Positions 2,391-35,065 of a stretch of DNA of 64,000 nt are shown here, one piece after another. The DNA comes from an uncultured Clostridia bacterium (GTDB lineage Bacteria; Bacillota; Clostridia; TANB77; CAG-508), in the NCBI GenBank assembly GCA_944386195.1, contig CALXAD010000003.1, positions 2,653 to 66,652 of the forward strand, given 5' to 3'. Under the pieces are notes generated by a model, which worked only from the letters and a program-made list of their open reading frames with translations, searched no databases and was not told where the DNA came from. The stretch's first letter is position 1. Every line of letters starts with the position of its first letter. Position numbers and translations under genes: made by a program.

Positions 2391-4346
2391 ATGGAGGACT
2401 TAGTTGAAAGTATTTTAGATTATATAAGGTCAGATTATACAGATTATGCAATAATGATAAATGGTGAATGGGGTTCTGGAAAAACTCATTTCTGGAATAA
2501 TAAAATAAGAAAAAAGATTGAATCTATGCAATTAAACGGAAGAAGATATACGACCATATATATGTCATTATATGGTATATCTAATTTGGAAGAAATAAGT
2601 AAAAAGATATTTATTGAAACAACTCAATTAATGGATAAGAACTTAAGAAGATTTATGGAAGCAAATGGGCAAACTGCAATACCAGAATATGCAAAAACTG
2701 GAATTGATATGGCAAATTTCTTTGGAGTAACTCAAAATGAAAATAGAATAGATTATAGTGAATTTTTCTCAACTGATGATAAGGTACTTTGTTTTGATGA
2801 CTTAGAAAGAGCAAATGTTGATGTTATTGATATTTTAGGATATATAAATAATTTTGTTGAACATGACCATATAAAAACAATAATTATATGTAATGAAAAA
2901 GAATTATCTACAAAATTAAAAAGTTCTAATTTAGAGATGAAAACATTTATAGCAACTTATCTTTTAGACAAACAAGATGAATTAAATAAAGCAGATAAGC
3001 CAATAGTAGAAAAGATACAAGACAAAATAGAGCATGTATTTGATAAGGCAAATGATTATGAAAGAATAAAAGAAAAATTAATAGGAGAAACATTTGAATA
3101 TGCTCCTAAGTTTGATTATATTATAAATGGAATATTAATGCGTTATGAAAATAATCCTGATTTAATACGTTTCTTAAGAGAAAATACAGGATTAATAATA
3201 TCAACATTCAATAAGTCAGGAACAAGAAATTTAAGAATATTAAAACATGCATTAAATGATTTTAAGAAAATTTATGAAATGGTAAATAAATCATATCCAA
3301 ATACGAATAATAGAGTAATGCAAACAATGCTTATATTTACAATAGCAATATCTTTTGAAATAAAAGCAGGAAAAGTAACAAAAGATAAATTTGTAAATAT
3401 AAAAGATAATGAAGAATATAAATCAATATTAGTATCATCAAGAATACTTATGGATAATAGGCAATTTTATATCAAAGAATTTGATAATAATTATTATTAT
3501 AATTTTAAATCAGAATACAGATTCTTTAAATTTATAGAATATTATGTAAGAACACGTATATTTGATATGAAGTTATTCAAAGAGAATATGGAAACAATAA
3601 GAAATACTGTAGACACAGAAAATTTACCAGCATATAAGAGATTACTTACAGAAGAATATTGGAAAATTTCAGACGACCAATTTGCTAATGTTATAAAGGA
3701 AATAATAGATGATGTAAAAGAAGGAAAATTAAGCTTAATAGATATTGTAAAATTATTTGCTTATTTTAGTTATTTCTCAAGAAAGGGCTTAATAGAGTAT
3801 GATTTAAAAACATTAAAAAGTATATTTTTTAATGGAATGAATATAGCTTCACTAAATTCTAAATATTGTGATAATGTAGATGAGGAATTAGGAAAAATAG
3901 CAATTGAAGAAGTTGCAGAAGATATGGAAGATATATTAAAACATTTCAATATGTTAAATGAACAATTACATGATAAAATGTTTAAAGAAAAAGCACAAGA
4001 AATAATGAAATGTGTACCTATGAAAATGGAACAATTCTATGAAAAATTTGATAAAGAATGTATGGATATACCAATATTTAAATATTATGATCCATTTCAA
4101 TTGTTCCAGAGAATATCATGTGCAAGTAATGAAGATATAGTATTAATAAAAGAAAAATTGCTAGATAGAGCAGATAGATATACTAAGAAAATAGAACCAG
4201 AAATGAAAAATATAAAACAATTAAAACAAATAATAGATGATTATTTAAAAGGAAAAGACCCATCTATAAAAATTGTTATGTTAAAGGAATTTTCTGAAAG
4301 TCTAGGAATTATACTAGGAAAATATAAAACAAGTTTCCTACCATAA
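2391..4346 (+). CDS. KAP-family P-loop NTPase
   Basis: Walker A INGEWGSGKTHF near the N-terminus, long alpha-rich C-terminus, 651 aa. RBS AAGGAGG upstream. Confidence 0.6.
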   Translation: MEDLVESILDYIRSDYTDYAIMINGEWGSGKTHFWNNKIRKKIESMQLNGRRYTTIYMSLYGISNLEEISKKIFIETTQLMDKNLRRFMEANGQTAIPEYAKTGIDMANFFGVTQNENRIDYSEFFSTDDKVLCFDDLERANVDVIDILGYINNFVEHDHIKTIIICNEKELSTKLKSSNLEMKTFIATYLLDKQDELNKADKPIVEKIQDKIEHVFDKANDYERIKEKLIGETFEYAPKFDYIINGILMRYENNPDLIRFLRENTGLIISTFNKSGTRNLRILKHALNDFKKIYEMVNKSYPNTNNRVMQTMLIFTIAISFEIKAGKVTKDKFVNIKDNEEYKSILVSSRILMDNRQFYIKEFDNNYYYNFKSEYRFFKFIEYYVRTRIFDMKLFKENMETIRNTVDTENLPAYKRLLTEEYWKISDDQFANVIKEIIDDVKEGKLSLIDIVKLFAYFSYFSRKGLIEYDLKTLKSIFFNGMNIASLNSKYCDNVDEELGKIAIEEVAEDMEDILKHFNMLNEQLHDKMFKEKAQEIMKCVPMKMEQFYEKFDKECMDIPIFKYYDPFQLFQRISCASNEDIVLIKEKLLDRADRYTKKIEPEMKNIKQLKQIIDDYLKGKDPSIKIVMLKEFSESLGIILGKYKTSFLP

Positions 4347-5531: not shown

Positions 5532-6671
5532 ATGAAAAAAAACACAAAAGGAATAACTTTAATAGCACTAGTTATTACAATAATTGTATTATTAATACTT
5601 GCAGGAGTAAGTATTGCAATGCTGACAGGTGATAATGGAATATTAACGCAAGCACAAAATGCAAAAAATAAGACTGAGAGAGGAAAAGTTAATGAAAAAA
5701 ATACATTAGAAAGTTATGAACAAATGATAAATGCAAGTACAGGAGTAACTTTAGGCGCAATAACAGGGGATGAAAAAAACAATACAATAACACAAGATAG
5801 TTTGGGAAATAGAGTAGTAGTACCAGCAGGATTTAAGGTGGTAAATCCAAATGAGAATGTAGAAGACGGAATAATAATAGAGGATGTAAGTCATGGAGAT
5901 ACAGTAGGAAGTCAATTTGTCTGGATACCAGTAGGAACAGGACTAAAAAAGAAGGATGGTACAAAATTTGATATAAAATTAAGTAGATATGTATTTGATG
6001 CTTCAGGAATTCCATCAGATAGAGGTTCAAATATTTTAGGAGATTTATGGCAAGAATTAAATATTGGAAAAAAGAATTCAACAGCAAAAGAGAATATTGA
6101 AAGTGAAAATGAAGGATTTAGAGGAAGTACAATAGCCAATGGAGGATATTATATTGGAAGATATGAAGCAAGAGATGGAGAAACAGATACAGAAAGAACA
6201 GATTTGACAGAAGATACAAACCAAATAACTTTAGCTTCTAATAATTATATTTATAATTATGTAACACAGCCACAAGCGGCAAGTTTAAGCCAAGAAATGT
6301 ATAATGATGATAATTTTGAAAGTGATTTAATGAATAGTTATGCATGGGATACAGCTGTATATTTTTTACAGAAATGTGATGATAGAAAAGATAAATCTAT
6401 ACCATATTCAAAACAAACAGGAGTAATTCCTACTTTTGCACCACAAGGGACGAATAATTTAAATACTAAAGATATAATATGTAATATATATGATATGGCA
6501 AGTAATTGCATTGAATTTACAACAGAAACAGCTGATAACGAAAATGGAATTGTTATGCGAGGGGGAGGATTTAATAGTAAAAGTAATCAAATCACGGCAG
6601 CTCGTATTGGAACTCCTCATGGAGATGATATTGTAATTTCCTTTCGACCAGTCTTATACTTAAATTATTAA
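5532..6671 (+). CDS. Membrane-anchored (pilin-like N-terminal TM) protein with C-terminal FGE-sulfatase / C-type-lectin-like fold
   Basis: N-terminus MKKNTKGITLIALVITIIVLLILAGVSIAM; C-terminus MRGGGFNSKSNQITAARIGTPHGDDIVISFRPV resembles the FGE/CLec C-terminal motif (RGG.F...R...P...GFR). RBS AAGGAG at 5517. Confidence 0.5.
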   Translation: MKKNTKGITLIALVITIIVLLILAGVSIAMLTGDNGILTQAQNAKNKTERGKVNEKNTLESYEQMINASTGVTLGAITGDEKNNTITQDSLGNRVVVPAGFKVVNPNENVEDGIIIEDVSHGDTVGSQFVWIPVGTGLKKKDGTKFDIKLSRYVFDASGIPSDRGSNILGDLWQELNIGKKNSTAKENIESENEGFRGSTIANGGYYIGRYEARDGETDTERTDLTEDTNQITLASNNYIYNYVTQPQAASLSQEMYNDDNFESDLMNSYAWDTAVYFLQKCDDRKDKSIPYSKQTGVIPTFAPQGTNNLNTKDIICNIYDMASNCIEFTTETADNENGIVMRGGGFNSKSNQITAARIGTPHGDDIVISFRPVLYLNY

Positions 6672-12299: not shown

Positions 12300-13529
12300 C
12301 TATTTTGCTTTTGAAATTTGTTCAAATAAATTAACTGTGTTTTTTGAACTATTTTCTGTTGGATGAGTATAGGTATCTAATGTAGTTTCAATACTTGCAT
12401 GACCTAATCTTGTTTGAACATCTTTTATATTTGCTCCATTTTGTATCAATAAAGTAGCATGAGTATGTCTTAAACTATGAAATTTAAAATCTATATTAAG
12501 TTCATAATTTACAACTTTTGATACATATTTCATTCCATTAGTTGTAAGTAAATTTCCATCTATTCTTGAACATATAAGAGATTCTTGTTTTAAATCTCCA
12601 CTAGGAATACTAGCATATAAAACATATAATCTTTTTAATTTCTTATTATTTACCAATTCTTCTTTTGAATATATTATTTTATAATATTCTCCATATTTAA
12701 GTTTATTTTCCATTTGTTTCTTTTTGAATTTTTTTAGTATGTTAATTAGAGTATCTCCTATTTTAATAGTTCTATTGCTTGTAAATGTTTTAGTAGGTCC
12801 AAAATACCATTGCTTATTATCATCATTAAAAATTAAGGATTTATTGATTGATATTGTTTTATTTTTAAAATCTATATCATCCCATGTTAAAGACAAAACT
12901 TCGCCTATTCTGCAACCAGTATAGAAACCAATCATTAGTGGTAAATAATAATCTGTAGTTTCTGGAAATCTATCTATTATAGTATTAAATTCTTCTAAGG
13001 TTATGGTTTTTACTTCTTCCGTATTTTTCTTTTCATATTTAGGCATAGAAATATATTGCATAGGATTTTCTTTAATAAACTTACATGGGTGGACAGCATA
13101 TTTTAATGATAAATTTAGTACACTAGATATTCTTTTTAACATACTTTTGGAAGATCCATTTATATATTTTTTATTTATATAATTTTGTAGAATACTTGGT
13201 GTTAATGACTTTAATTTATATATACCCAATGATGGTTTTAAATAATTTTCTACAATACCCTTGTAGTTAGTAATAGTATTTGTTCTTAAATTCAATTCTA
13301 CATAATTTTCTAACCAGTAATCAAGATAATCTGACATTGATATTTCTGATGGCTCAAAATGTAGTCCAGAGTTATTATATTCTGCTAGAGCTTTCACACC
13401 TGCATCAAGTGCTTCCTTTTTCGTATTGAAACCAGATTTTGTAATTTGTTTTCTTTTTCCTTCAATTTTTGCAGCTTCAAATTGATACTGCCATTTTTGA
13501 CCTCTTTTTCTAACATTAATTTGTGACAT
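12300..13529 (-). CDS. Phage tyrosine integrase
   Basis: C-terminal HSLRHTHATLLIQNGANIKDVQTRLGHASIETTLDTYTH (R..H.R.Y catalytic signature); N-terminal SAM-like domain; RBS GGAGG. Confidence 0.9.
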   Translation of the reverse strand: MSQINVRKRGQKWQYQFEAAKIEGKRKQITKSGFNTKKEALDAGVKALAEYNNSGLHFEPSEISMSDYLDYWLENYVELNLRTNTITNYKGIVENYLKPSLGIYKLKSLTPSILQNYINKKYINGSSKSMLKRISSVLNLSLKYAVHPCKFIKENPMQYISMPKYEKKNTEEVKTITLEEFNTIIDRFPETTDYYLPLMIGFYTGCRIGEVLSLTWDDIDFKNKTISINKSLIFNDDNKQWYFGPTKTFTSNRTIKIGDTLINILKKFKKKQMENKLKYGEYYKIIYSKEELVNNKKLKRLYVLYASIPSGDLKQESLICSRIDGNLLTTNGMKYVSKVVNYELNIDFKFHSLRHTHATLLIQNGANIKDVQTRLGHASIETTLDTYTHPTENSSKNTVNLFEQISKAK

Positions 13530-14092: not shown

Positions 14093-14746
14093 CTATTTAA
14101 AAGCACTTTTATTTTCTGCTTTAATAACTCTACCAATTATTTTAAAATCATTATTTGATAATTTTTTAACAGGATAATATGGATTCATTGCATGTAGTTC
14201 AATAATATCTTGTACTATTATTATTTTCCTAATACAAACAATATTATCATTTATCATAATTAAGTATGTCTTTCCATTCTCATAATTATTTTGTTTACAA
14301 ACAATAGCTAAGTCTCCAACATCTAACAAAGGTAACATAGAATCATCAGATACCTTATAAGCAAAATATTCTTTTGAAGGATTTAGCTTATCTTCTAAAT
14401 TAATATACTTACCATTATGATTAGCCATAAATGATCCATTTTCAAAAATTATATTATCAATAATAGGAATAGAATTACCGTGTTGATGAATAGAATCTTC
14501 AAAAAAATTATCAATTATATCTATATAATCACATATTTTCATCAAATCATCATAGGTTGTTAATCCTTTTGAAGCATTTGCAATACCCTTTAAAATTTTA
14601 GGAGATGGGGGGGTATCTAATTTTAAGTTCATATATTGTGATAAATATGTTCTATTAACTCCAGAGGCATTAGCAAATTGTGTTTGATTTTCATATAATG
14701 AATTAATTTTTTTTAAAATATTTGCAAAATCTATTTTATTAAACAT
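14093..14746 (-). CDS. CI-like phage repressor (XRE HTH plus S24 LexA-like peptidase)
   Basis: HTH TQFANASGVNRTYLSQY; S24 motifs SDDSMLP and KIIGRVIK; AGGAGG RBS 9 nt upstream of ATG 14746. Confidence 0.8.
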   Translation of the reverse strand: MFNKIDFANILKKINSLYENQTQFANASGVNRTYLSQYMNLKLDTPPSPKILKGIANASKGLTTYDDLMKICDYIDIIDNFFEDSIHQHGNSIPIIDNIIFENGSFMANHNGKYINLEDKLNPSKEYFAYKVSDDSMLPLLDVGDLAIVCKQNNYENGKTYLIMINDNIVCIRKIIIVQDIIELHAMNPYYPVKKLSNNDFKIIGRVIKAENKSAFK

Positions 14747-14802
14747 ATAAAAAAACCTCCTAGACATAGAATAACACAAGTTTTAAAAAAAATCAATAAA
14801 AA

Positions 14803-25679: not shown

Positions 25680-25809
25680 GAGGAATAAGTAATGAATATT
25701 TTTATAGGATGTCTAATATTTGCAATAGGTGTATTTGTAGGAATAACCTTAATGTGTATATTACAGGTTGCAAGAGAATGCGATGAGGAAGAGGAAAGGA
25801 GAAAATAAA

Positions 25810-26322
25810 ATGGCAGATATATCACCATATTTTAGATTTAATTTTAATGATAAGTTTATGGCACAAGAAATAATTAAGAGAGAAGGAACACCAGAAGCTA
25901 TAAAGTATTTTAGTGAACATTGTGAAAAACTAACAAATTATGGATATTGGTTTTTATTATCTACATTATGGGTAAGTTATACAGGATTTTCTGATATTGA
26001 ATTATGGAAAAAGTTATTTTCATCAGACAGAAGTCAAAGACAAAAAAGTATTATGAAACCATCAGAAGTAAAAGAATTCAATTATTTGCCATATTTTATA
26101 ACAGTTTATAGAGCGAAGAGACCAGGAGAAAAACAATGGATTGCTTATACATTAGATTTAGAAATAGCAAAGAGATTCGCAAAAGAAAGAAAGGTAAATA
26201 AAATTACAAAATATGAAGTTAGAAAAAAAGATGTATTAGCATTATTTCTTCGTAGGGGAGAAAAAGAGATAATTGTACTAGATGAAAATAAGCCAAAATT
26301 TATTGAAGAAATCGAGGTGTAG
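25810..26322 (+). CDS. Hypothetical protein
   Basis: RBS GGAAAGGAG; 171 aa. Confidence 0.4.
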   Translation: MADISPYFRFNFNDKFMAQEIIKREGTPEAIKYFSEHCEKLTNYGYWFLLSTLWVSYTGFSDIELWKKLFSSDRSQRQKSIMKPSEVKEFNYLPYFITVYRAKRPGEKQWIAYTLDLEIAKRFAKERKVNKITKYEVRKKDVLALFLRRGEKEIIVLDENKPKFIEEIEV

Positions 26323-26324
26323 TT

Positions 26325-27029
26325 ATGAAACATATAGTAAGTTTTAGTGGAGGAAAAGACAGTACAGCAATGTTACTTCGTATGCTAGAAGAAAATATGT
26401 TAATAGATAAGATAATTTTTTGTGATATAGGTAAGGATTTTCCAGATATGTTAGAGCATATTAAGAAAATACAAAGTTATATAGCACATAATTATGGAAA
26501 AGAAATAACAATATTAATTCCTAAACATAGCTTTGATTATTATATGTTTGAGCATGAGAAAATAAAAGGAAAAAATAAAGGAAAGAAAGGTTATGGCTGG
26601 GCAACAATGAGATGTAGATGGTGTACTAGCAACTTAAAAACACAAACAATAAAAAATTATTTAAAACAATATGAAAAAGAAGGGTATGTTGAATATGTTG
26701 GAATAGCTTATGATGAAACTAAAAGAATAAAAGATAAATGTTATCCACTTGTAAGTTGGAAAATGACAGAAGCGGATTGCTTAAAATATTGCTATGCTAG
26801 AGGATTTGATTGGAATGGATTATATGAAAGATTTAATAGAGTAAGTTGTTGGTGTTGTCCTTTAAAGAATCTTAAAGAACTAAAAAATTTATATAAATAT
26901 TATCCGGAATTGTGGCAAAAATTAAAAGAAATGGATAAAAAAAGTTATAACCAATTTAGAGCAGATTATAGTGTAGAAGAATTAGAAGAAAAATTCAAAA
27001 TTTATAATAAAAATGGGGTGGTTAGATGA
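26325..27029 (+). CDS. PAPS-reductase-like PP-loop protein (phosphoadenosine phosphosulfate reductase family)
   Basis: SFSGGKDST PP-loop motif; C-terminal Cys cluster RVSCWCCP. Confidence 0.75.
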   Translation: MKHIVSFSGGKDSTAMLLRMLEENMLIDKIIFCDIGKDFPDMLEHIKKIQSYIAHNYGKEITILIPKHSFDYYMFEHEKIKGKNKGKKGYGWATMRCRWCTSNLKTQTIKNYLKQYEKEGYVEYVGIAYDETKRIKDKCYPLVSWKMTEADCLKYCYARGFDWNGLYERFNRVSCWCCPLKNLKELKNLYKYYPELWQKLKEMDKKSYNQFRADYSVEELEEKFKIYNKNGVVR

Positions 27030-27511
27030 GTAACATAGAAGAAGATATAGAATTATTAAAAAGTTTAGATACAACAGGAGATAAAGGATTAACACAAGCA
27101 ATAAAAAATATTTTAAAAGAGCTAGGCAATTTAGATAAAACTAATAATGATTTGAGATTATTATATAGAAGAACGGCAAAAAAATTACAAGAAAATGGAA
27201 AAGAAGAATTAGCAGAATACTTTTTAGCACAAATATATGAAGTGCCAACATTTGTAGTTGATGATGATATAGATTATTACAAAGAATATCATAAACAAAA
27301 AGAAAGAATAACTGAATTAGAAGCGGAAAATCACATACAAAGAAGTCAATTAATGACAGCTTTTGATAGAGGGTTTATACCAAAACAAGTAATAATAGAT
27401 GCAATAGCCAGAAATTTAGAAAAGGATAGTGCAGGTAGATTGGTATTTGATTTTAATAATTGCCAAAAGTTATCAATAGAAATTGTAAAATTAATGAGAG
27501 AAGGTATTTAG
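27026..27511 (+). CDS. Hypothetical protein
   Basis: 161-aa ORF. Confidence 0.35.
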   Translation: MSNIEEDIELLKSLDTTGDKGLTQAIKNILKELGNLDKTNNDLRLLYRRTAKKLQENGKEELAEYFLAQIYEVPTFVVDDDIDYYKEYHKQKERITELEAENHIQRSQLMTAFDRGFIPKQVIIDAIARNLEKDSAGRLVFDFNNCQKLSIEIVKLMREGI

Positions 27512-28760: not shown

Positions 28761-29090
28761 ATGTATAATAGAAATTATGAGAATTTAAGTAAAGAAGAAT
28801 TAATAAAGGAACTAAAAAGTAGAGATGAGCAAATTTTAATATTAGATCAAGAATATAAGAAAGAGTTAGTAAAAAAAGAAAATATGCTTAAAGATGAGAA
28901 AAAGTTACACGAATTTTCAATAAAGACAATGAAAAATCAAAGTGAATCACAAATCAAAGGATTAAAAGAAACAATTGTGATGATGGCGACAGCCTCTTAT
29001 AATGCACAAGAAAGTTTTTTTCAAACATTAAGAGATATAGATAAAAAATTAAATTTAATAATAGATTGGAGGAACGAAGATAATGATTAA
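28761..29090 (+). CDS. Hypothetical coiled-coil protein
   Basis: 109-aa ORF. Confidence 0.35.
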   Translation: MYNRNYENLSKEELIKELKSRDEQILILDQEYKKELVKKENMLKDEKKLHEFSIKTMKNQSESQIKGLKETIVMMATASYNAQESFFQTLRDIDKKLNLIIDWRNEDND

Positions 29091-29850
29091 AGTAGAATAT
29101 TCAAAAGATTTACAAAAAGCAAAGATTTCAAATATAGGTGTTGGTATAAATAATAAAAAAATAGTTAGAATATATGAACATGATAATAAAAATAAATATA
29201 AAGTAAATGATACAACAGAAGATGAAGAAACTTTAAGGATAATGAAAGAATGTAATTGTTTAGTGGAATTAACATTTTATCATAATGAAAGCATAGAAAG
29301 TTTAATAAGGGTATTAGAATCTTTAAAAAACAAAGATTTCATAAAAGAAGAAGATAATCCAGAAATGTATAAAAAAATAGAGAATATTTTAGGTGAAAAG
29401 AGTAATTTAGAAAAACATGCAGAAAGAGAATTAAATATGTTATTAGAAAAATGTGAAGATGATCAAGAAGGAAAAGAAATACAAAAATTAATAAATGCTG
29501 ATATGATGGAAATTGTAGAATTGTTTGCTAATCAAGGACATAGTGGTTTTAGTGCTTCTTATGCAAAAAATATGCTTAATAAATTGCTAAATTATGAGCC
29601 CATACTTCCTTTAACAGGTGCAGATGATGAATGGGAAAAATTAGCTTATTCAAAAGATACTTGTTATCAAAATAAAAGATGTCCAAGAGTATTTAAAAAT
29701 GAAGATGGACAGGCTTATGATATAGAAGGAAAAGTATTTTCTGATAACGGAGGAAAAACTTGGTATCAGTCAAAAGATAGTAGAGTTTATATAGAATTTC
29801 CATACAGACCACATACAGAAAAGATTATTTTAGATAATAAGGAGGAATAG
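29083..29850 (+). CDS. Hypothetical protein
   Basis: 255-aa ORF. Confidence 0.4.
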   Translation: MIKVEYSKDLQKAKISNIGVGINNKKIVRIYEHDNKNKYKVNDTTEDEETLRIMKECNCLVELTFYHNESIESLIRVLESLKNKDFIKEEDNPEMYKKIENILGEKSNLEKHAERELNMLLEKCEDDQEGKEIQKLINADMMEIVELFANQGHSGFSASYAKNMLNKLLNYEPILPLTGADDEWEKLAYSKDTCYQNKRCPRVFKNEDGQAYDIEGKVFSDNGGKTWYQSKDSRVYIEFPYRPHTEKIILDNKEE

Positions 29851-30183: not shown

Positions 30184-30750
30184 ATGTCAAATGAGAATAT
30201 GAAAGAATTTGTATTTGATAAAGAAAATTTAGAAATTTATAAACAAATGGTAAGAGAAGCAACAGAAAATGCAGTAAAACAAATAGAAAAAGAAAAACAA
30301 GATAAAATCAGAAATAGATATGATAGAAGATTAAGGAATACAGAGATGTTATTGAGGAATTATAATAATTTTAAGGAACATGCAGATAAAGCAATATATG
30401 AAGATATTGAAAAAGAAGATGTAAAAGAAGATATGGATTATGACAAAGATATAGATAATTTATTTATTAATTCAATATTAAAGACTAAGAAAAGAACGGA
30501 AATAATGCTAAAACATATTGATAATTGTATAGAATATTATACTTATAAATGTTTAGCTTCAGATAGAGATGATATTCAAAGAAGAATACAAGTAATAAAA
30601 ATGTTATACATAAACGAAAATCCAATGACTTATGAAGAAATTGCAGAGGAATTAAATTGTAGTACAAAAACAATAAATAATACAAAGAAAGCAGCAATTA
30701 AAGAATTATCAGTATTATTTTTTGGAATTGATGGTGTTAAATTATATTAA
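30184..30750 (+). CDS. ArpU-family / sigma-70 region-4-like phage late transcriptional activator
   Basis: C-terminal HTH TYEEIAEELNCSTKTINNTKKAAIKEL; positioned immediately upstream of the packaging module. Confidence 0.55.
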   Translation: MSNENMKEFVFDKENLEIYKQMVREATENAVKQIEKEKQDKIRNRYDRRLRNTEMLLRNYNNFKEHADKAIYEDIEKEDVKEDMDYDKDIDNLFINSILKTKKRTEIMLKHIDNCIEYYTYKCLASDRDDIQRRIQVIKMLYINENPMTYEEIAEELNCSTKTINNTKKAAIKELSVLFFGIDGVKLY

Positions 30751-30777
30751 GTTCAAAAACATTTCCAAAATGTTTCC

Positions 30778-30806
30778 TTGACACTTCTTTTTTGAAAATC
30801 TATAAT
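30778..30806 (+). promoter_or_regulatory. Consensus promoter TTGACA-17-TATAAT followed by a leader hairpin; putative late-operon promoter
   Basis: TTGACA 30778-30783 and TATAAT 30801-30806 with a 17-nt spacer. Confidence 0.55.
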
Positions 30807-31013
30807 GTTAGTGTGAAAAATTGTTTTTATCAAGAAACAATCCCCTTTTATTTTCAATAAGCTCACTAGAAATAGTGGGCTTTTAGTAATATATAGGGTA
30901 AAAAATGTAGTATAAAATGAACAAAAGAAGGTTGAAGAATATGAATTTTGAAATGTGCATGAAAAGGGCTTGTAAGCAATGTAAAAACAATAAAAAATGT
31001 TTTAGAGAAGGAG

Positions 31014-31538
31014 ATGAGAAAAGTGGACATTTCAAAAGTGAAAATTCAAACAATGCCGCTAGAAAAGCTAAAACCAGCAGACTACAACCCAAGAAAAAAT
31101 TTAACAAAAGAAGATAAAGAATACCAAAAACTAGAACAAAGCCTTAATTCATTTGGTAATGTGCAACCTGTTGTATATAACGAAAGGACTGGTAATGTTG
31201 TTTCTGGCCACCAAAAATTAAATATACTACATGAAAAAGGTTTTAAAGAAACAGATTGTGTAATTGTGAACTTAAATAATGAAGAAGAAAAAGCATTAAA
31301 TATAGCATTAAATAGAATAACAGGAAAATGGGATTATTCAAAATTAGAAAGTGTACTTAATGAACTTGCAGAAAATGAATACGACTTAAGCAAAACAGGA
31401 TTAGATGAAGAAGAAATAGAAGATCTAATCAATGAACTTGATGTTAGTGATGAGGATTTTATACAAGGTACAGAAATAGTAAAAGAAAAACCATCAAAAG
31501 AAATAATTTGCCCTAATTGCGGATTCAAAATCGAATGA
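31014..31538 (+). CDS. ParB-like nuclease domain protein
   Basis: MPLEKLKPADYNPRK...VVYNERTGNVVSGHQKLNIL matches the ParB N-terminal domain. Confidence 0.7.
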   Translation: MRKVDISKVKIQTMPLEKLKPADYNPRKNLTKEDKEYQKLEQSLNSFGNVQPVVYNERTGNVVSGHQKLNILHEKGFKETDCVIVNLNNEEEKALNIALNRITGKWDYSKLESVLNELAENEYDLSKTGLDEEEIEDLINELDVSDEDFIQGTEIVKEKPSKEIICPNCGFKIE

Positions 31539-32290
31539 GGATATTTTTAGCAGGAATTAATAGTGGCATGAATAAGCAAATAAGGCAAGAAATTTATAAA
31601 AAATATAAAGCTAAATATGCATTAGAAACTTTTTTTAATGGCGAAAATAAATGTAAAAAAGCACTTGACTTTGTAGGAAATGAGAATTTTCTATTAGACT
31701 CAGGTGCTTTTTCATATATGAATGGAGCAAAAATCACACTTGAAGAAATGCAAAAGTATGTAAATAGATATATAGAATTTATTAATAAATATGATATTAA
31801 ATATTTCTTTGAAATAGATGTAGATAATATTTTTGGATTAAAGCAAGTGGAAAAATGGAGAAAACAAATAGAAAAAGAAACAAATAAAAAATGTATTCCT
31901 GTATGGCATAAAGGTAGAGGTGTGCAATATTGGAAAGATATGTGTGAAAAATATGATTATGTAGCAATAGGAGGATTAGTCTTTCATGTTAAAAAACAGG
32001 AATATGAATTGATAAGAAAATTAGTTAATTATGCATATAAGAAAGGTGTAAAAGTTCATGGATTAGGTTTTACAAAAACGGCTGATTTACATAGATATAA
32101 ATTTTATAGTGTAGATAGTGCGAGTTGGATTAGGGCAGCCGCATTAGGACAACAAAAATATACTTTTGTTCATGACCACATGATTTGTAGGCGAATATCC
32201 TCCAAAGGTAAAAAAACAAATATAGCACTCTTATCAGCAAATAATTATATAGAGTGGTGTAAATATCAACGATATATGGAGGAAAGATAA
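31535..32290 (+). CDS. DpdA-like queuine-tRNA-ribosyltransferase-fold protein (candidate 7-deazaguanine DNA transglycosylase)
   Basis: tgt-family motifs LLDSGAFSY (DSGGFQ-like), VAIGGLV, YSVDSASWIRAAALG (DCV.PTR.AR.G-like); ATGA overlap with the upstream gene. Confidence 0.55.
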   Translation: MRIFLAGINSGMNKQIRQEIYKKYKAKYALETFFNGENKCKKALDFVGNENFLLDSGAFSYMNGAKITLEEMQKYVNRYIEFINKYDIKYFFEIDVDNIFGLKQVEKWRKQIEKETNKKCIPVWHKGRGVQYWKDMCEKYDYVAIGGLVFHVKKQEYELIRKLVNYAYKKGVKVHGLGFTKTADLHRYKFYSVDSASWIRAAALGQQKYTFVHDHMICRRISSKGKKTNIALLSANNYIEWCKYQRYMEER

Positions 32291-32904
32291 TGAAGAAATT
32301 AGAAATAGAAAATTATTTATTTGGTATCTATTGTGCTGGAATTATAATACAAAATATTCTTGCAACAAAGAATATAGATATTTTAATGTTTACAGTAACA
32401 ACGGGGATTTTGGTATCTCCGTTAGTTTTTATTATACAAGATGTTCAAACAGAGATTTTTGGCTATAAAAAAGCAAAAAAGATGATTATTTTAGGTTATG
32501 CAATGAACTTTATAGCTATAATTTTATATATGCTAAGTATATGTATTCCAAGTTCAGAAACATATACTAACCAAACAGCATTTGCAACAATATTAGGGAC
32601 AACTCCAAGAATAGCAATAGCAAGTTTTATTGCTTATATAACAGGGTCCTTAATGAATTCTAAAATTATGGAAGGCTTGAAGAAAAAATATAATAACAAT
32701 TTATTTTTTAGGGCAATTTCTTCAACGATAGTAGGACAGTTTATAGATAATATGCTTTTTTCTGTTATTGCTTTTATTGGAATATTACCAATGCAAACAA
32801 TAATTTCAATGATAGTAGGTGGAACAATTTTTGAAATAATTTATGAAATAATATTTTACCCTATTACCAAAGCTTTAATAAAAAAGATAAAAGCAAACAG
32901 ATAA
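32290..32904 (+). CDS. YhhQ/VUT-family queuosine-precursor (preQ0/preQ1) transporter
   Basis: About 6 TM segments; 204 aa; YhhQ-like ending IFEIIYEIIFYPITK. Confidence 0.6.
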   Translation: MKKLEIENYLFGIYCAGIIIQNILATKNIDILMFTVTTGILVSPLVFIIQDVQTEIFGYKKAKKMIILGYAMNFIAIILYMLSICIPSSETYTNQTAFATILGTTPRIAIASFIAYITGSLMNSKIMEGLKKKYNNNLFFRAISSTIVGQFIDNMLFSVIAFIGILPMQTIISMIVGGTIFEIIYEIIFYPITKALIKKIKANR

Positions 32905-32946: not shown

Positions 32947-33687
32947 GTGAATCAAAAGAAAATAGAAGAAATAAAAGAAGACTATATGCTAGGATTAACA
33001 TATAAAGAAATAGAACAAAAACATAGCATTAAGCCTAATCAATTAAAGTGGTTAATTCAAAAGCATAAATGGAAAAGAAAAAGCAATAGAAAACAAGCAC
33101 AAAAAGGAAATCAAAATGCAAAAGGAAATAAAGGTGGAACAGGAGCAAAAACAGGAAATAAAAATGCTCTTACTACCGGAGAATATGAAACAATACTCTA
33201 TGATGTTTTATCAGAAGAAGAACAATCACTTTATAAAAAATTAGAAATTCAAGACAAGAAAAATGTATTACAGGAAGAATTTAAAATATTAACAATAAGA
33301 GAACTGAGAATACTAAAAAGAATTAAAGAACTTAAAGATAAAAACAAAGACATGAATATTGAGAAAATTATACAAAGAAAATATAGTTCTACAATAGAAA
33401 AAGAAACAGAAACAACAACTGAAGCAGTTAATGTAATTACACCATTACAAAAATTAGAGGATGCTCTTACGAGAATACAGGATCAAAAAAGAAAATGTGT
33501 TGATAGTTTACACAAGATTGAAAATGATGATAGAAGAATGGAATTAGAAATTATAAGATTAGAAATGGAAGCATCAAAAGAAGATTTAAGCAATAATGAC
33601 AATGTCAAAGATGATAGCTTTATAAAAGCATTACAAGATAGCGCAGAAAGTGCATGGGATGACTATGAAGAAGAAACAACAGAGTAA
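32947..33687 (+). CDS. Terminase small subunit (GTG start)
   Basis: N-terminal HTH; basic Gly/Asn-rich region GNQNAKGNKGGTGAKTGNKNA typical of TerS. Confidence 0.7.
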   Translation: MNQKKIEEIKEDYMLGLTYKEIEQKHSIKPNQLKWLIQKHKWKRKSNRKQAQKGNQNAKGNKGGTGAKTGNKNALTTGEYETILYDVLSEEEQSLYKKLEIQDKKNVLQEEFKILTIRELRILKRIKELKDKNKDMNIEKIIQRKYSSTIEKETETTTEAVNVITPLQKLEDALTRIQDQKRKCVDSLHKIENDDRRMELEIIRLEMEASKEDLSNNDNVKDDSFIKALQDSAESAWDDYEEETTE

Positions 33688-35065
33688 AAGTTTAGATGAA
33701 AGAATTTCTAATCTAAAAAAGCAAATAATGAAAAATGCTATCACATTGAGAAAGAAAATAAAAAATGGTACTGTATTCAAATTTAAAAAATTTAGTAAAA
33801 AACAAAGAAAAATTTTGACTTGGTGGTGTGATAATAGTCCTGTAAAAGATAAAAATGGAATCATTGCAGATGGAGCAATAAGGTCTGGAAAAACTGTAAG
33901 TATGTCTTTATCTTTTGTATTATGGGCTATGACAAGATTTAATGGTCAAAATTTTATAATGGCTGGTAAAACTATTAGTGCATTTAGAAGAAATGTACTT
34001 TTTTGGTTAAAGCTAATGCTACGAGTACAAGGTTATTCAATAAAAGATAAAAGGTCAGATAACTTAATAGAAATATCAAAAGGCGAAGTAATTAATTACT
34101 TTTATGTGTTTGGTGGAAAAGACGAAAGAAGTCAAGACCTAGTTCAAGGTATTACAGCAGCAGGGGTATTTTTAGATGAAGTTGCATTGATGCCAGAAAG
34201 TTTTGTTAATCAAGCTACTGCTCGTTGTAGTGTTGAAGGCTCAAAGTATTGGTTTAACTGTAATCCAGAAGGACCAAATCATTGGTTTAAAGTTAACTGG
34301 ATTGATAAAGCAAAAGAAAAAGGATTAATTTATCTACATTTTACAATGGATGATAATTTAAGTTTATCAGAAGAAGTAAAAGCTAGATATAGAAGTATGT
34401 ATGTAGGTGTCTTTTTCCAAAGATTTATTTTAGGATTATGGGTACTTGCGGAAGGAATTATATATCATAATTTCAATAAAGATAAACACACAATAAAAGA
34501 AAATGAAATTCCAGATAAATTTGATTTTTATTATGTAACATCTGATTATGGAATAACTAATCCACAGGTGTTTTTATTATGTGGAATTAAATATATAAAA
34601 ACTAAACCTCATTTGTATATTTTAGATGAGTATTACAATACAGGAACTAAAAAAAATAAATATGGTCAAGAAGAAAAAATTGTAAAAACTGATGCATTAT
34701 TTTTAGAAGATTATAAGAAATTTATTAGAGATTTACCAATAAGAAAAACAATTATAGATCCAAGCGCAACATCTCTTATAAATTTATTTAAAGAAAACAA
34801 TATTAAAGTTAAAGAAGCAGATAATGCCGTAGTTGATGGAATAAATTTAGTTTTAAATTGGCTTGAAGAAGGAAGGATACATATTATAGCAAAAAGATGT
34901 CCTAATTTGATAAAAGAATTTTTTAGCTATATATGGGATGCAAAAGCACAAGAAAGAGGAGAAGATAAACCTGTTAAAACTAATGACCATGCTCTTGATG
35001 CTTTAAGATACTTATTAATGACAATATTCCCAGTTAAGAAAAAAGGTGCATTTTTTGCTAGATAG
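33650..35065 (+). CDS. Terminase large subunit (PBSX-type)
   Basis: Walker A GAIRSGKT; Walker B VFLDE; nuclease motif DHALDALRY. Confidence 0.85.
   Translation: MHGMTMKKKQQSKSLDERISNLKKQIMKNAITLRKKIKNGTVFKFKKFSKKQRKILTWWCDNSPVKDKNGIIADGAIRSGKTVSMSLSFVLWAMTRFNGQNFIMAGKTISAFRRNVLFWLKLMLRVQGYSIKDKRSDNLIEISKGEVINYFYVFGGKDERSQDLVQGITAAGVFLDEVALMPESFVNQATARCSVEGSKYWFNCNPEGPNHWFKVNWIDKAKEKGLIYLHFTMDDNLSLSEEVKARYRSMYVGVFFQRFILGLWVLAEGIIYHNFNKDKHTIKENEIPDKFDFYYVTSDYGITNPQVFLLCGIKYIKTKPHLYILDEYYNTGTKKNKYGQEEKIVKTDALFLEDYKKFIRDLPIRKTIIDPSATSLINLFKENNIKVKEADNAVVDGINLVLNWLEEGRIHIIAKRCPNLIKEFFSYIWDAKAQERGEDKPVKTNDHALDALRYLLMTIFPVKKKGAFFAR

Follow-up and report, generated by a model that had tools for sequence, protein, structure and literature searches.

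Phage 7-deazaguanine DNA-modification systems are an established class, which includes the DpdA systems of the 9g, CAjan, and Rosebush (DpdA1) type. In Rosebush, about 28% of the guanines in phage DNA are dPreQ0 (~96,500 dPreQ0 per 10^6 nt; PMC6884629), and in CAjan deletion of dpdA removes dPreQ0 from the phage DNA (PMC7544227). That some DpdA-only phages might scavenge the base, or salvage it through a phage-borne YhhQ, is an idea raised in 2019. Here we describe a 64,000-nt stretch of DNA from an uncultured Clostridia bacterium (contig CALXAD010000003.1 of assembly GCA_944386195.1; hereafter “the window”), in which a prophage carries three consecutive genes (31014–32904) for a ParB-like protein, a DpdA-type enzyme, and a YhhQ-family transporter. 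We read these genes, at a probability of about 0.72, as a salvage-type phage 7-deazaguanine DNA-modification module of a temperate Clostridia phage, whose expression would coincide with that of the packaging genes in the lytic phase. Judged from sequence and comparative data, the module is a real and selected system that is probably functional, with a predicted anti-restriction role.

Three Overlapping Genes Under Purifying Selection

A first-pass annotation of the window had proposed three adjoining open reading frames (ORFs) here, and all three were recovered at the coordinates it gave. They encode a stand-alone ParB_N protein of 174 aa (31014–31538, forward strand), a minimal DpdA-type guanine transglycosylase of 251 aa (31535–32290, forward), and a YhhQ/QPTR importer of 204 aa (COG1738, PF02592 Vut_1; 32290–32904, forward). 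The ParB/DpdA junction (...CGAATGAGG) shows the ATGA overlap that had been claimed, and the DpdA/YhhQ junction (GATAATGAAG) shows a TAATG overlap of 1 nt; together these overlaps point to co-translation of the three genes. At the head of the module, a GAAGGAG ribosome-binding site directly abuts the ATG at 31014 and lies 9 nt before a GTG at 31023, so that the true ParB start is probably the GTG.

All three genes are under purifying selection, with dN/dS values against an 85%-identical relative (locus L019) of 0.35 for ParB_N, 0.10 for DpdA, and 0.17 for YhhQ. The same module occurs at 99% identity in a contig of an uncultured Clostridia bacterium metagenome-assembled genome (L002). To its right the module is bounded by the terminase genes—a candidate small subunit (TerS; 32947–33687, forward) and the large subunit (TerL; 33650–35065, forward), with Terminase_6N and Terminase_6C Pfam matches for the pair—and it stands at the head of the packaging operon. 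The position just upstream of the packaging genes had been recognized at first pass, and TerS and TerL homologs lie downstream of the module in related loci too.

A Minimal DpdA-Type Barrel

The central ORF of the module encodes a TIM barrel of the tRNA-guanine transglycosylase (TGT) superfamily. It matches phrog_887 (“queuine tRNA-ribosyltransferase”) at 3.6e-58, and a phmmer comparison with CAjan DpdA gives 2.6e-19. The motifs on which the DpdA assignment was originally built (LLDSGAFSY, VAIGGLV, and VDSASWIRAAALG) are all present in the translation, where they fall on invariant or near-invariant columns of the family. For residue mapping, a profile of the window protein, its distant relatives, and CAjan DpdA was aligned to the Salmonella DpdA structure (7ui4; chain numbering offset 20). 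In structure comparison the protein shows the (beta/alpha)8 barrel of TGT-type enzymes, and both its fold and its catalytic residues, including equivalents of the catalytic aspartates, match those of solved DpdA and TGT proteins. The assignment made at first pass therefore stands on both counts.

Specifically, D194 corresponds to the nucleophile Asp256 of Salmonella DpdA (Asp280 of Zymomonas mobilis TGT), and D55 to the general acid/base Asp95 (Asp102 in the Zymomonas enzyme); either of the substitutions Asp95Ala and Asp256Ala abolishes Salmonella DpdA activity (PMC10164549). Of the residues predicted to surround the base, F59 (Phe99 in Salmonella DpdA) would form the base-stacking gate, L177 (Leu236) would sandwich the base, and D95 (Asp130) would belong to the base pocket, with aligners differing on whether D95 or D97 is the equivalent. 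All five positions are invariant or near-invariant in the family and are common to CAjan DpdA. The G146–G147 pair is invariant as well and aligns with the AVGGLAVGE motif of E. coli TGT. A single-sequence hhalign comparison with E. coli TGT aligned the GGL motif only (probability 0.3%) and carries no weight here.

Only 57 residues follow D194, and no conserved Cys/His cluster lies in this stretch. Because the C-terminus ends so early and without such a cluster, the enzyme has neither the zinc subdomain (CxCxxC...H) nor a tRNA-binding domain, which bears out the first-pass statement that a tRNA-binding extension is missing. The missing parts fit a DNA-acting DpdA over a tRNA TGT, and we infer that the window enzyme would exchange guanine for a 7-deazaguanine on DNA. 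The 128-residue DNA-binding insertion of bacterial DpdA (Ins8) is absent too.

If the target were not DNA, the protein might instead be a tRNA/RNA guanine transglycosylase or might attach 7-deazaguanine to protein in a Cap10-like manner. We think this very improbable, as its 251 aa hold no zinc subdomain, PUA, or other tRNA-binding domain, the proteins nearest to it in sequence are phage DpdAs whose activity on DNA is proven, and neither a QueC-like Cap9 nor a CD-NTase lies nearby. The company that the enzyme keeps also speaks for DNA: it is paired with a DNA-binding ParB_N domain, and DNA methylases fill the corresponding slot in sibling loci (see below).

The family around this enzyme, made up of compact DpdA proteins in Clostridia prophages, is very large and almost entirely unnamed. 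A homolog search returned 2,798 cluster representatives (90% identity), nearly all of ~253 aa and none with a Pfam domain; the few homologs with a named source, Clostridioides difficile and Thomasclavelia among them, are all annotated as “hypothetical protein.” An exhaustive profile search returned 5,400 representatives at 50% identity, 386 of them below 1e-30.

Two unusual forms were seen among the relatives. In several distant relatives (L087, 10001–10861; L069, 4472–5389; and P0151), the reading frame of DpdA extends upstream into an ORF that holds two to five tandem copies of the N-terminal beta-1 segment, “M-x-(I/V/L)-(Y/F)-L-A-G,” which precede the real DpdA start; those of P0151 read MNVYLAQ..., MNIYLAG..., MDVYLAG..., MKIYLSM..., and MNIYLAE.... 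Another pair of loci (L131/L132, 3970–4869, forward) encodes a divergent DpdA-like protein of 299 aa (24% identity, E 6e-10) between ParB_N and Vut_1 genes upstream of the terminase; it keeps the DSG and SADS motifs, and “YIALS” replaces the invariant “AIGG.”

Import or Synthesis as Alternative Occupants of One Slot

The last gene of the module had been described as encoding a six-transmembrane protein of the YhhQ/VUT family, and this description holds. The product scores well above the cut-offs of Pfam Vut_1 (4.8e-41; 141.1 vs. 27.2 bits) and of TIGR00697, “queuosine precursor transporter” (114.7 vs. 50.95 bits), and a Kyte–Doolittle scan finds six hydrophobic segments; the E. coli-type YhhQ equivalog NF008406 is not reached (65.9 vs. 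252). Genes for preQ0 synthesis do not accompany it. CAjan QueC, QueD, QueE, and FolE, used as phmmer queries, found nothing at E ≤ 10 in any window ORF of at least 50 aa, while they do recover these genes from loci of related phages (our positive control), and Pfam scans of the early-region ORFs returned only recombination and other phage functions. The earlier observation that the window holds no queC/D/E/folE is thus confirmed by both kinds of scan. The Clostridium hosts of DpdA-only phages lack a preQ0 pathway (PMC6884629), which would give such phages a reason to bring their own importer.

Related loci support the suggestion, also made at first pass, that the base is imported rather than synthesized. 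We fetched 97 loci with DpdA relatives, which dereplicated to 47 lineages at 90% identity, 32 of them scorable for the slot that follows DpdA. Full-length YhhQ alone occupies this slot in 21 lineages and at least two of QueC, QueD, QueE, and FolE alone in 10, while no lineage has both and one has neither (Fisher’s exact p = 1.7e-7, shared ancestry ignored). The single lineage scored as neither (L048) in fact carries a 354-aa YhhQ-matching ORF that the adjacency test missed. In the lineages with Que genes the order is ParB, DpdA, QueC, QueD, QueE, FolE, (TerS), TerL, i.e., the synthesis cassette sits in the YhhQ position. No QueF, amidotransferase-fused QueC, or ArcS was seen in these lineages, which carry the four preQ0 genes only, and this points to preQ0 as the likely substrate of the clade.

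Two apparent DpdA–Vut_1 fusions (P0186, 465 aa; P0165, 382 aa) were rejected as evidence on account of a linker that looks out-of-frame. The linker is ~100 residues long, is similar in both proteins, and resembles an out-of-frame yhhQ start. The fusions are probably frameshift or gene-calling artefacts, although programmed frameshifting may be at work. One Que-carrying relative (L068) has a small phosphoribosyltransferase-like ORF (5995–6360, forward; Pribosyltran 4e-6) between QueC and QueD.

ParB_N as the Most Constant Partner of the Enzyme

The ParB-like gene had been listed as a neighbor that overlaps DpdA. The adjacency is real, yet the gene is more than a neighbor, being the most constant partner of the window-type DpdA. 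Among 45 lineages scorable for this feature, phmmer identifies 38 in which the end of a ParB-like gene and the start of DpdA are no more than a few bases apart, and Pfam adds three (L069, L075, and L081), for a total of about 41 of 45. In the L052/L060/L061 lineage the upstream gene, with no Pfam match, carries a GHGRLLA motif and aligns to the ParB family. A different situation is seen in the L084–L098 lineage, which has Que genes and no recognizable ParB; upstream of its DpdA lie a DUF4417 protein (2.2e-32; L087, 8201–8971, forward) and an unannotated 223-aa protein, which may represent a different accessory.

In the window, the ParB_N protein has the ParB/Srx fold (Pfam ParB_N, 31.4 bits vs. 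a cut-off of 26.3) and matches phrog_620 (4e-45), the N-terminus of phrog_498 “DNA methyltransferase” (1.5e-43), and the N-terminus of PADLOC MTase_II (7.8e-37). Most members of the family share NPR, G-H-x-R-x-x-A, and D-N-K motifs, at whose positions the window copy reads GHQK and ALNR, and close with an acidic C-terminal stretch terminating in CPxCG. This C-P-x-C-G knuckle (31509–31523, ParB residues 166–170; CPNCG in the window) is invariant in DpdA-linked and methylase-linked ParB_N proteins alike, and an acidic segment, D-x-D-F-x-Q-D-T-E-I, comes before it. The lone CxxC hints at a metal site that dimerization or the partner enzyme would complete. A partition ParB (a CTPase clamp) was considered and rejected despite the PHROG label, as TIGR00180 reaches only 16.3 bits against 58.45, over the N-domain alone, and no ParA lies nearby.

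The wider distribution of ParB_N was followed through its own loci: an alignment-driven scan had no stretch conserved enough to use, a single-protein scan gave three loci, and a homolog search with four neighborhood look-ups followed. In sibling prophages, close relatives of the window ParB_N gene occupy this slot with other enzymes. At one such locus (L108) the order is a sigma-like gene, ParB_N, a C5 methylase, a ParB_N::N6_N4 methylase fusion, TerS, and TerL, and in two contigs (P0310 and P0338) it is ParB_N, a C5 methylase, TerS, and TerL. A third contig (P0383) reads ParB_N, a small ORF, a divergent DpdA-like protein, Vut_1, another small ORF, and TerL. In this comparison the region upstream of the terminase presents itself as a swappable DNA-modification cassette with ParB_N as its constant part, and the presence of methylases in this slot in siblings argues that the substrate of DpdA is DNA.

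What the ParB domain does beside DNA-modifying enzymes of phages has, by the literature's own account, yet to be established (PMC12783734), and a 2019 paper guessed that the equivalent ORF of phage CRB2 is a dpdB homolog (PMC6392294). From its sequence we class the window ParB_N as an analog of DpdB and not as a member of that family. The pattern suggests that ParB_N would provide DNA binding or loading for its catalytic partner. Tentatively, and with more doubt than confidence, we extend this to a model in which ParB_N is a general, exchangeable DNA-targeting or loading adaptor—serving DpdA here and C5 and N6/N4 methylases in siblings—that may load onto phage DNA at the head of the packaging operon, which would let a minimal barrel lacking a DNA-binding insertion modify the DNA just before packaging.

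Proposed Mechanism and Competing Explanations

In the mechanism that we propose, YhhQ in the host membrane would import a free 7-deazaguanine base, most likely preQ0 and possibly preQ1, from the gut environment. The 251-aa DpdA would then swap selected guanines in the replicated phage DNA for the imported base through a TGT-type double displacement, with D194 as the nucleophile and D55 as the general acid/base. Co-translated ParB_N would supply DNA binding, loading, or targeting, and would in this way fill the role played in bacterial systems by DpdB (a ParB-fold ATPase) and by the large DNA-binding insertion of DpdA. The modified DNA would be packaged and would resist restriction endonucleases in the next host.

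Several observations weigh against this mechanism or parts of it. With regard to the enzyme, the score with the NCBIfam DpdA model NF041059 is 31.2 bits, where the cut-off is 200, and the match covers residues 140–223 only (~1e-7), the PADLOC DpdA match is likewise partial (~1e-7), and Pfam returns no family at E ≤ 0.01, TGT included. As these scores lie below curated thresholds, the protein is better placed in a distinct, uncurated subfamily than with the bacterial-DpdA equivalog. Sequence-only searches of the Protein Data Bank with the window protein or with a 30-member profile gave noise only, and a broader profile reaches 7ui4 at E 0.09. With regard to the importer, the substrate range of the YhhQ family (preQ0, preQ1, queuine) varies and is not readable from sequence (PMC11130926). 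A short Vut_1 protein (167 aa, 27.4 bits) also sits inside the Que cluster of one relative (L069), as a short YhhQ does in CAjan, which limits the exclusivity described above to full-length YhhQ in the post-DpdA slot. With regard to ParB_N, the window protein has SGHQK where most relatives have GH(T/G)R, its sequence lacks the DGQQR motif, and it is matched by none of the DpdB and DndB models in NCBIfam and PADLOC. Furthermore, the activity of 9g DpdA in E. coli requires no ParB partner (PMC6884629), and ParB_N may therefore be dispensable.

To the same list belongs a contig (P0288) in which ParB_N stands directly before the terminase without any modification enzyme. Such an arrangement would fit a reading of the three genes as neighbors rather than parts of one machine, with YhhQ acting mainly as a lysogenic-conversion gene for queuosine in host tRNA and ParB_N assisting the terminase in packaging or as a nuclease. 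Gut Clostridia do depend on salvage of queuosine precursors (PMC11130926), and a perfect sigma-70-type promoter-like site upstream of the module (TTGACA-17-TATAAT, 30778–30806, forward; 12/12 consensus match) makes expression in the lysogen conceivable. Independent neighbors, however, are hard to reconcile with the ATGA and TAATG overlaps and the co-translation that they imply, or with sister lineages in which YhhQ is replaced by preQ0 synthesis genes instead of being lost independently. Nor would a terminase accessory be expected to stay with DpdA or with DNA methylases when the type of terminase changes, and even to be fused to methylases, as ParB_N does. We therefore hold this explanation to be improbable and retain the DNA-modification module as the preferred reading.

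The main reason for caution about that reading comes from phages that have been analyzed chemically. The DpdA-only phage Orion has no modified bases, and phage 7-11 has only traces (~50 dADG per 10^6 nt; PMC6884629); the insertion rates of bDpdA and DpdA2 are low as well (<0.1% of G; PMC10516641). Taken with the absence of synthesis genes from the window, these results are what one would see if the module were intact but usually silent, the phage DNA remaining un- or trace-modified since free preQ0/preQ1 is scarce or the insertion rate very low. This alternative is unlikely in our view, as purifying selection acts on all three genes and the family has thousands of members. Moreover, the importer is strictly kept where the Que genes are missing, which argues for a system in use whose supply of substrate is important.

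Genomic Setting and Neighboring Genes

The window has a G+C content of ~26% and comprises a prophage of ~47 kb and ~16 kb of host flank; the host is a spore-forming Firmicute. The prophage genes include a tyrosine integrase (12300–13529, reverse strand), an S24/HTH repressor (14093–14779, reverse) followed by YqaJ/RecT recombination genes, structural genes from ~33 kb, and an amidase endolysin for lysis (57888–59171). Host genes lie on both sides of it, with a SpoVT-like gene, ligA, folD, and two tRNAs among them.

Immediately to the left of the module is a sigma-70 region 4/helix-turn-helix regulator-like gene (30184–30750, forward; Pfam HTH_11 and Sigma70_r4; phrog_1558 3.5e-50), and many related loci have a homolog of it 550–790 nt ahead of DpdA. 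It is the probable late-operon activator and is the conserved left neighbor of the module. The promoter-like site at 30778–30806 is a candidate promoter by consensus match only; where relatives possess the sigma-like gene, matches of 10–12/12 recur 150–240 nt ahead of ParB. A leader of ~200 nt follows this site and contains a 10-bp hairpin (~30859–30882) with a short U-run (AAGCUCACUAGAAAUAGUGGGCUUUUAG), which lies ~130 nt ahead of where ParB starts. As a whole, the fold of the leader does not reach significance (z −1.9), and Rfam has no match for the hairpin region (30778–30885), which could be an attenuator or a small RNA. No preQ1 riboswitch was detected, either at gathering thresholds across the entire window or at E ≤ 10 within 30740–31040.

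A further gene had been suggested at first pass to share in the modification theme, namely a PP-loop gene with a PAPS-reductase domain (26325–27029, forward; PF01507 3.4e-9, 37.4 bits; PADLOC SspD 3.6e-21), whose neighbors are at 25768–26322 and 27026–27511. The domain is indeed present, and the protein most closely resembles the DNA phosphorothioation enzymes SspD and DndC, while falling below the DndC equivalog cut-offs; none of the partners DndA/B/D/E or SspA/B/C is found in the window. A link to the module was rejected, as there is no co-occurrence in either direction. Related DpdA loci with 6–10 kb of upstream flank lack a relative of this gene, except for one weak match (L012, E 7e-5), and 23 viral loci with relatives of it (38–85% identity) include none with DpdA or YhhQ and share no conserved neighbors with the window. 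The gene is thus outside the module and has at most a general DNA-modification theme in common with it.

Other genes of the window bear on defense and mobility. An ORF 1.2 kb upstream of the module (29083–29850, forward) has a Pfam match to Tad3, a type I Thoeris inhibitor, over residues 107–231 (8.2e-40), which makes this part of the prophage look like an anti-defense region. Between the tail fiber gene and the lysis genes, an Rfam RT-18 RNA (55434–55514, forward; 69 bits vs. a gathering score of 41) lies directly 5' of a 354-aa reverse transcriptase (55530–56594, forward; RVT_1 8e-18; PADLOC RT_UG17 and Drt3a-like). The two are probably a prophage-borne, defense-associated reverse transcriptase and its non-coding RNA. 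The host flank contains a KAP-family P-loop NTPase (2391–4346, forward; PADLOC candidate defense system PDC-S49, 3.4e-80) and a gene with an IS200-like Y1 transposase domain and a fused C-terminal helix-turn-helix (884–1657, forward), which adjoins a ComF-like phosphoribosyltransferase/zinc-ribbon gene.

Comparison With Known Systems

The module belongs to a known class, the phage 7-deazaguanine DNA-modification systems, and its closest described counterpart is the 9g/CAjan/Rosebush type (PMC6884629, PMC7544227). The transglycosylases are homologous (CAjan DpdA, 26% identity; Rosebush DpdA, blastp 3e-7), and those of CAjan and Rosebush have the motif set DSGAF...D...H...GG...H...DS(S/T)W in common with the window enzyme. 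The expected product (dPreQ0) and the expected function (anti-restriction) are also those of this type. Rosebush even shows the same terminase-adjacent layout: its ParB-like gp1 overlaps DpdA (gp2), and QueC, QueD, QueE, FolE, and the terminase follow. Rosebush gp1 and the window ParB_N are 26% identical over 130 residues of the ParB core (pairwise E 0.002). The differences lie in size, supply, and lifestyle. The window enzyme is shorter (251 aa vs. 306 to 385 aa), its phage is temperate and of gut Clostridia, and the module lacks FolE, QueD, QueE, and QueC, so that the base must be imported. CAjan carries a short YhhQ and the synthesis genes together, and its yhhQ is dispensable (PMC7544227), whereas in the window a full-length YhhQ replaces synthesis.

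Bacterial Dpd systems (e.g., Salmonella Montevideo; PMC10164549; 7ui4) are more distant. Unlike these, the window has neither DpdC nor the restriction genes DpdD–K, and the partner of its transglycosylase is a classical ParB_N of the methylase-fused kind rather than the DndB-like DpdB. Specifically, DpdB, whose ATPase activity is needed for insertion by DpdA, combines a DGQQR NTPase motif with an SspE-like C-terminal helical domain, whereas the window ParB_N has only 174 aa. Phage ParB_N–methyltransferase pairs and fusions (PF02195) contain a related ParB_N domain, with the difference that the partner in the window is a transglycosylase and not a methylase. The same gene order as in the window—ParB-like, “queuine tRNA-ribosyltransferase,” and “queuosine precursor transporter”—is found in the annotation of Fusobacterium phage phiFN37 (OR492271); its DpdA is 36% identical to that of the window, an extra small ORF separates DpdA from YhhQ, and the terminase does not adjoin the module.

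What the present comparison adds to these precedents is the size of an uncurated compact subfamily, the either/or logic of the cassette, the coupling to ParB_N, and the interchange of DpdA and methylases in one slot. It also shows, by comparison among relatives, evidence for scavenging as a genuine strategy under selection. If the reading is true, thousands of “hypothetical proteins” become annotatable, and the module offers a tractable model for the role of ParB_N with DNA-modifying enzymes. Restriction evasion by gut phages would then be tied to the queuosine-precursor pool, a micronutrient that the microbiota and its human host have in common. If, in addition, ParB_N is an adaptor and supply is by salvage only, the anti-restriction armor of these phages would depend on environmental queuosine precursors.

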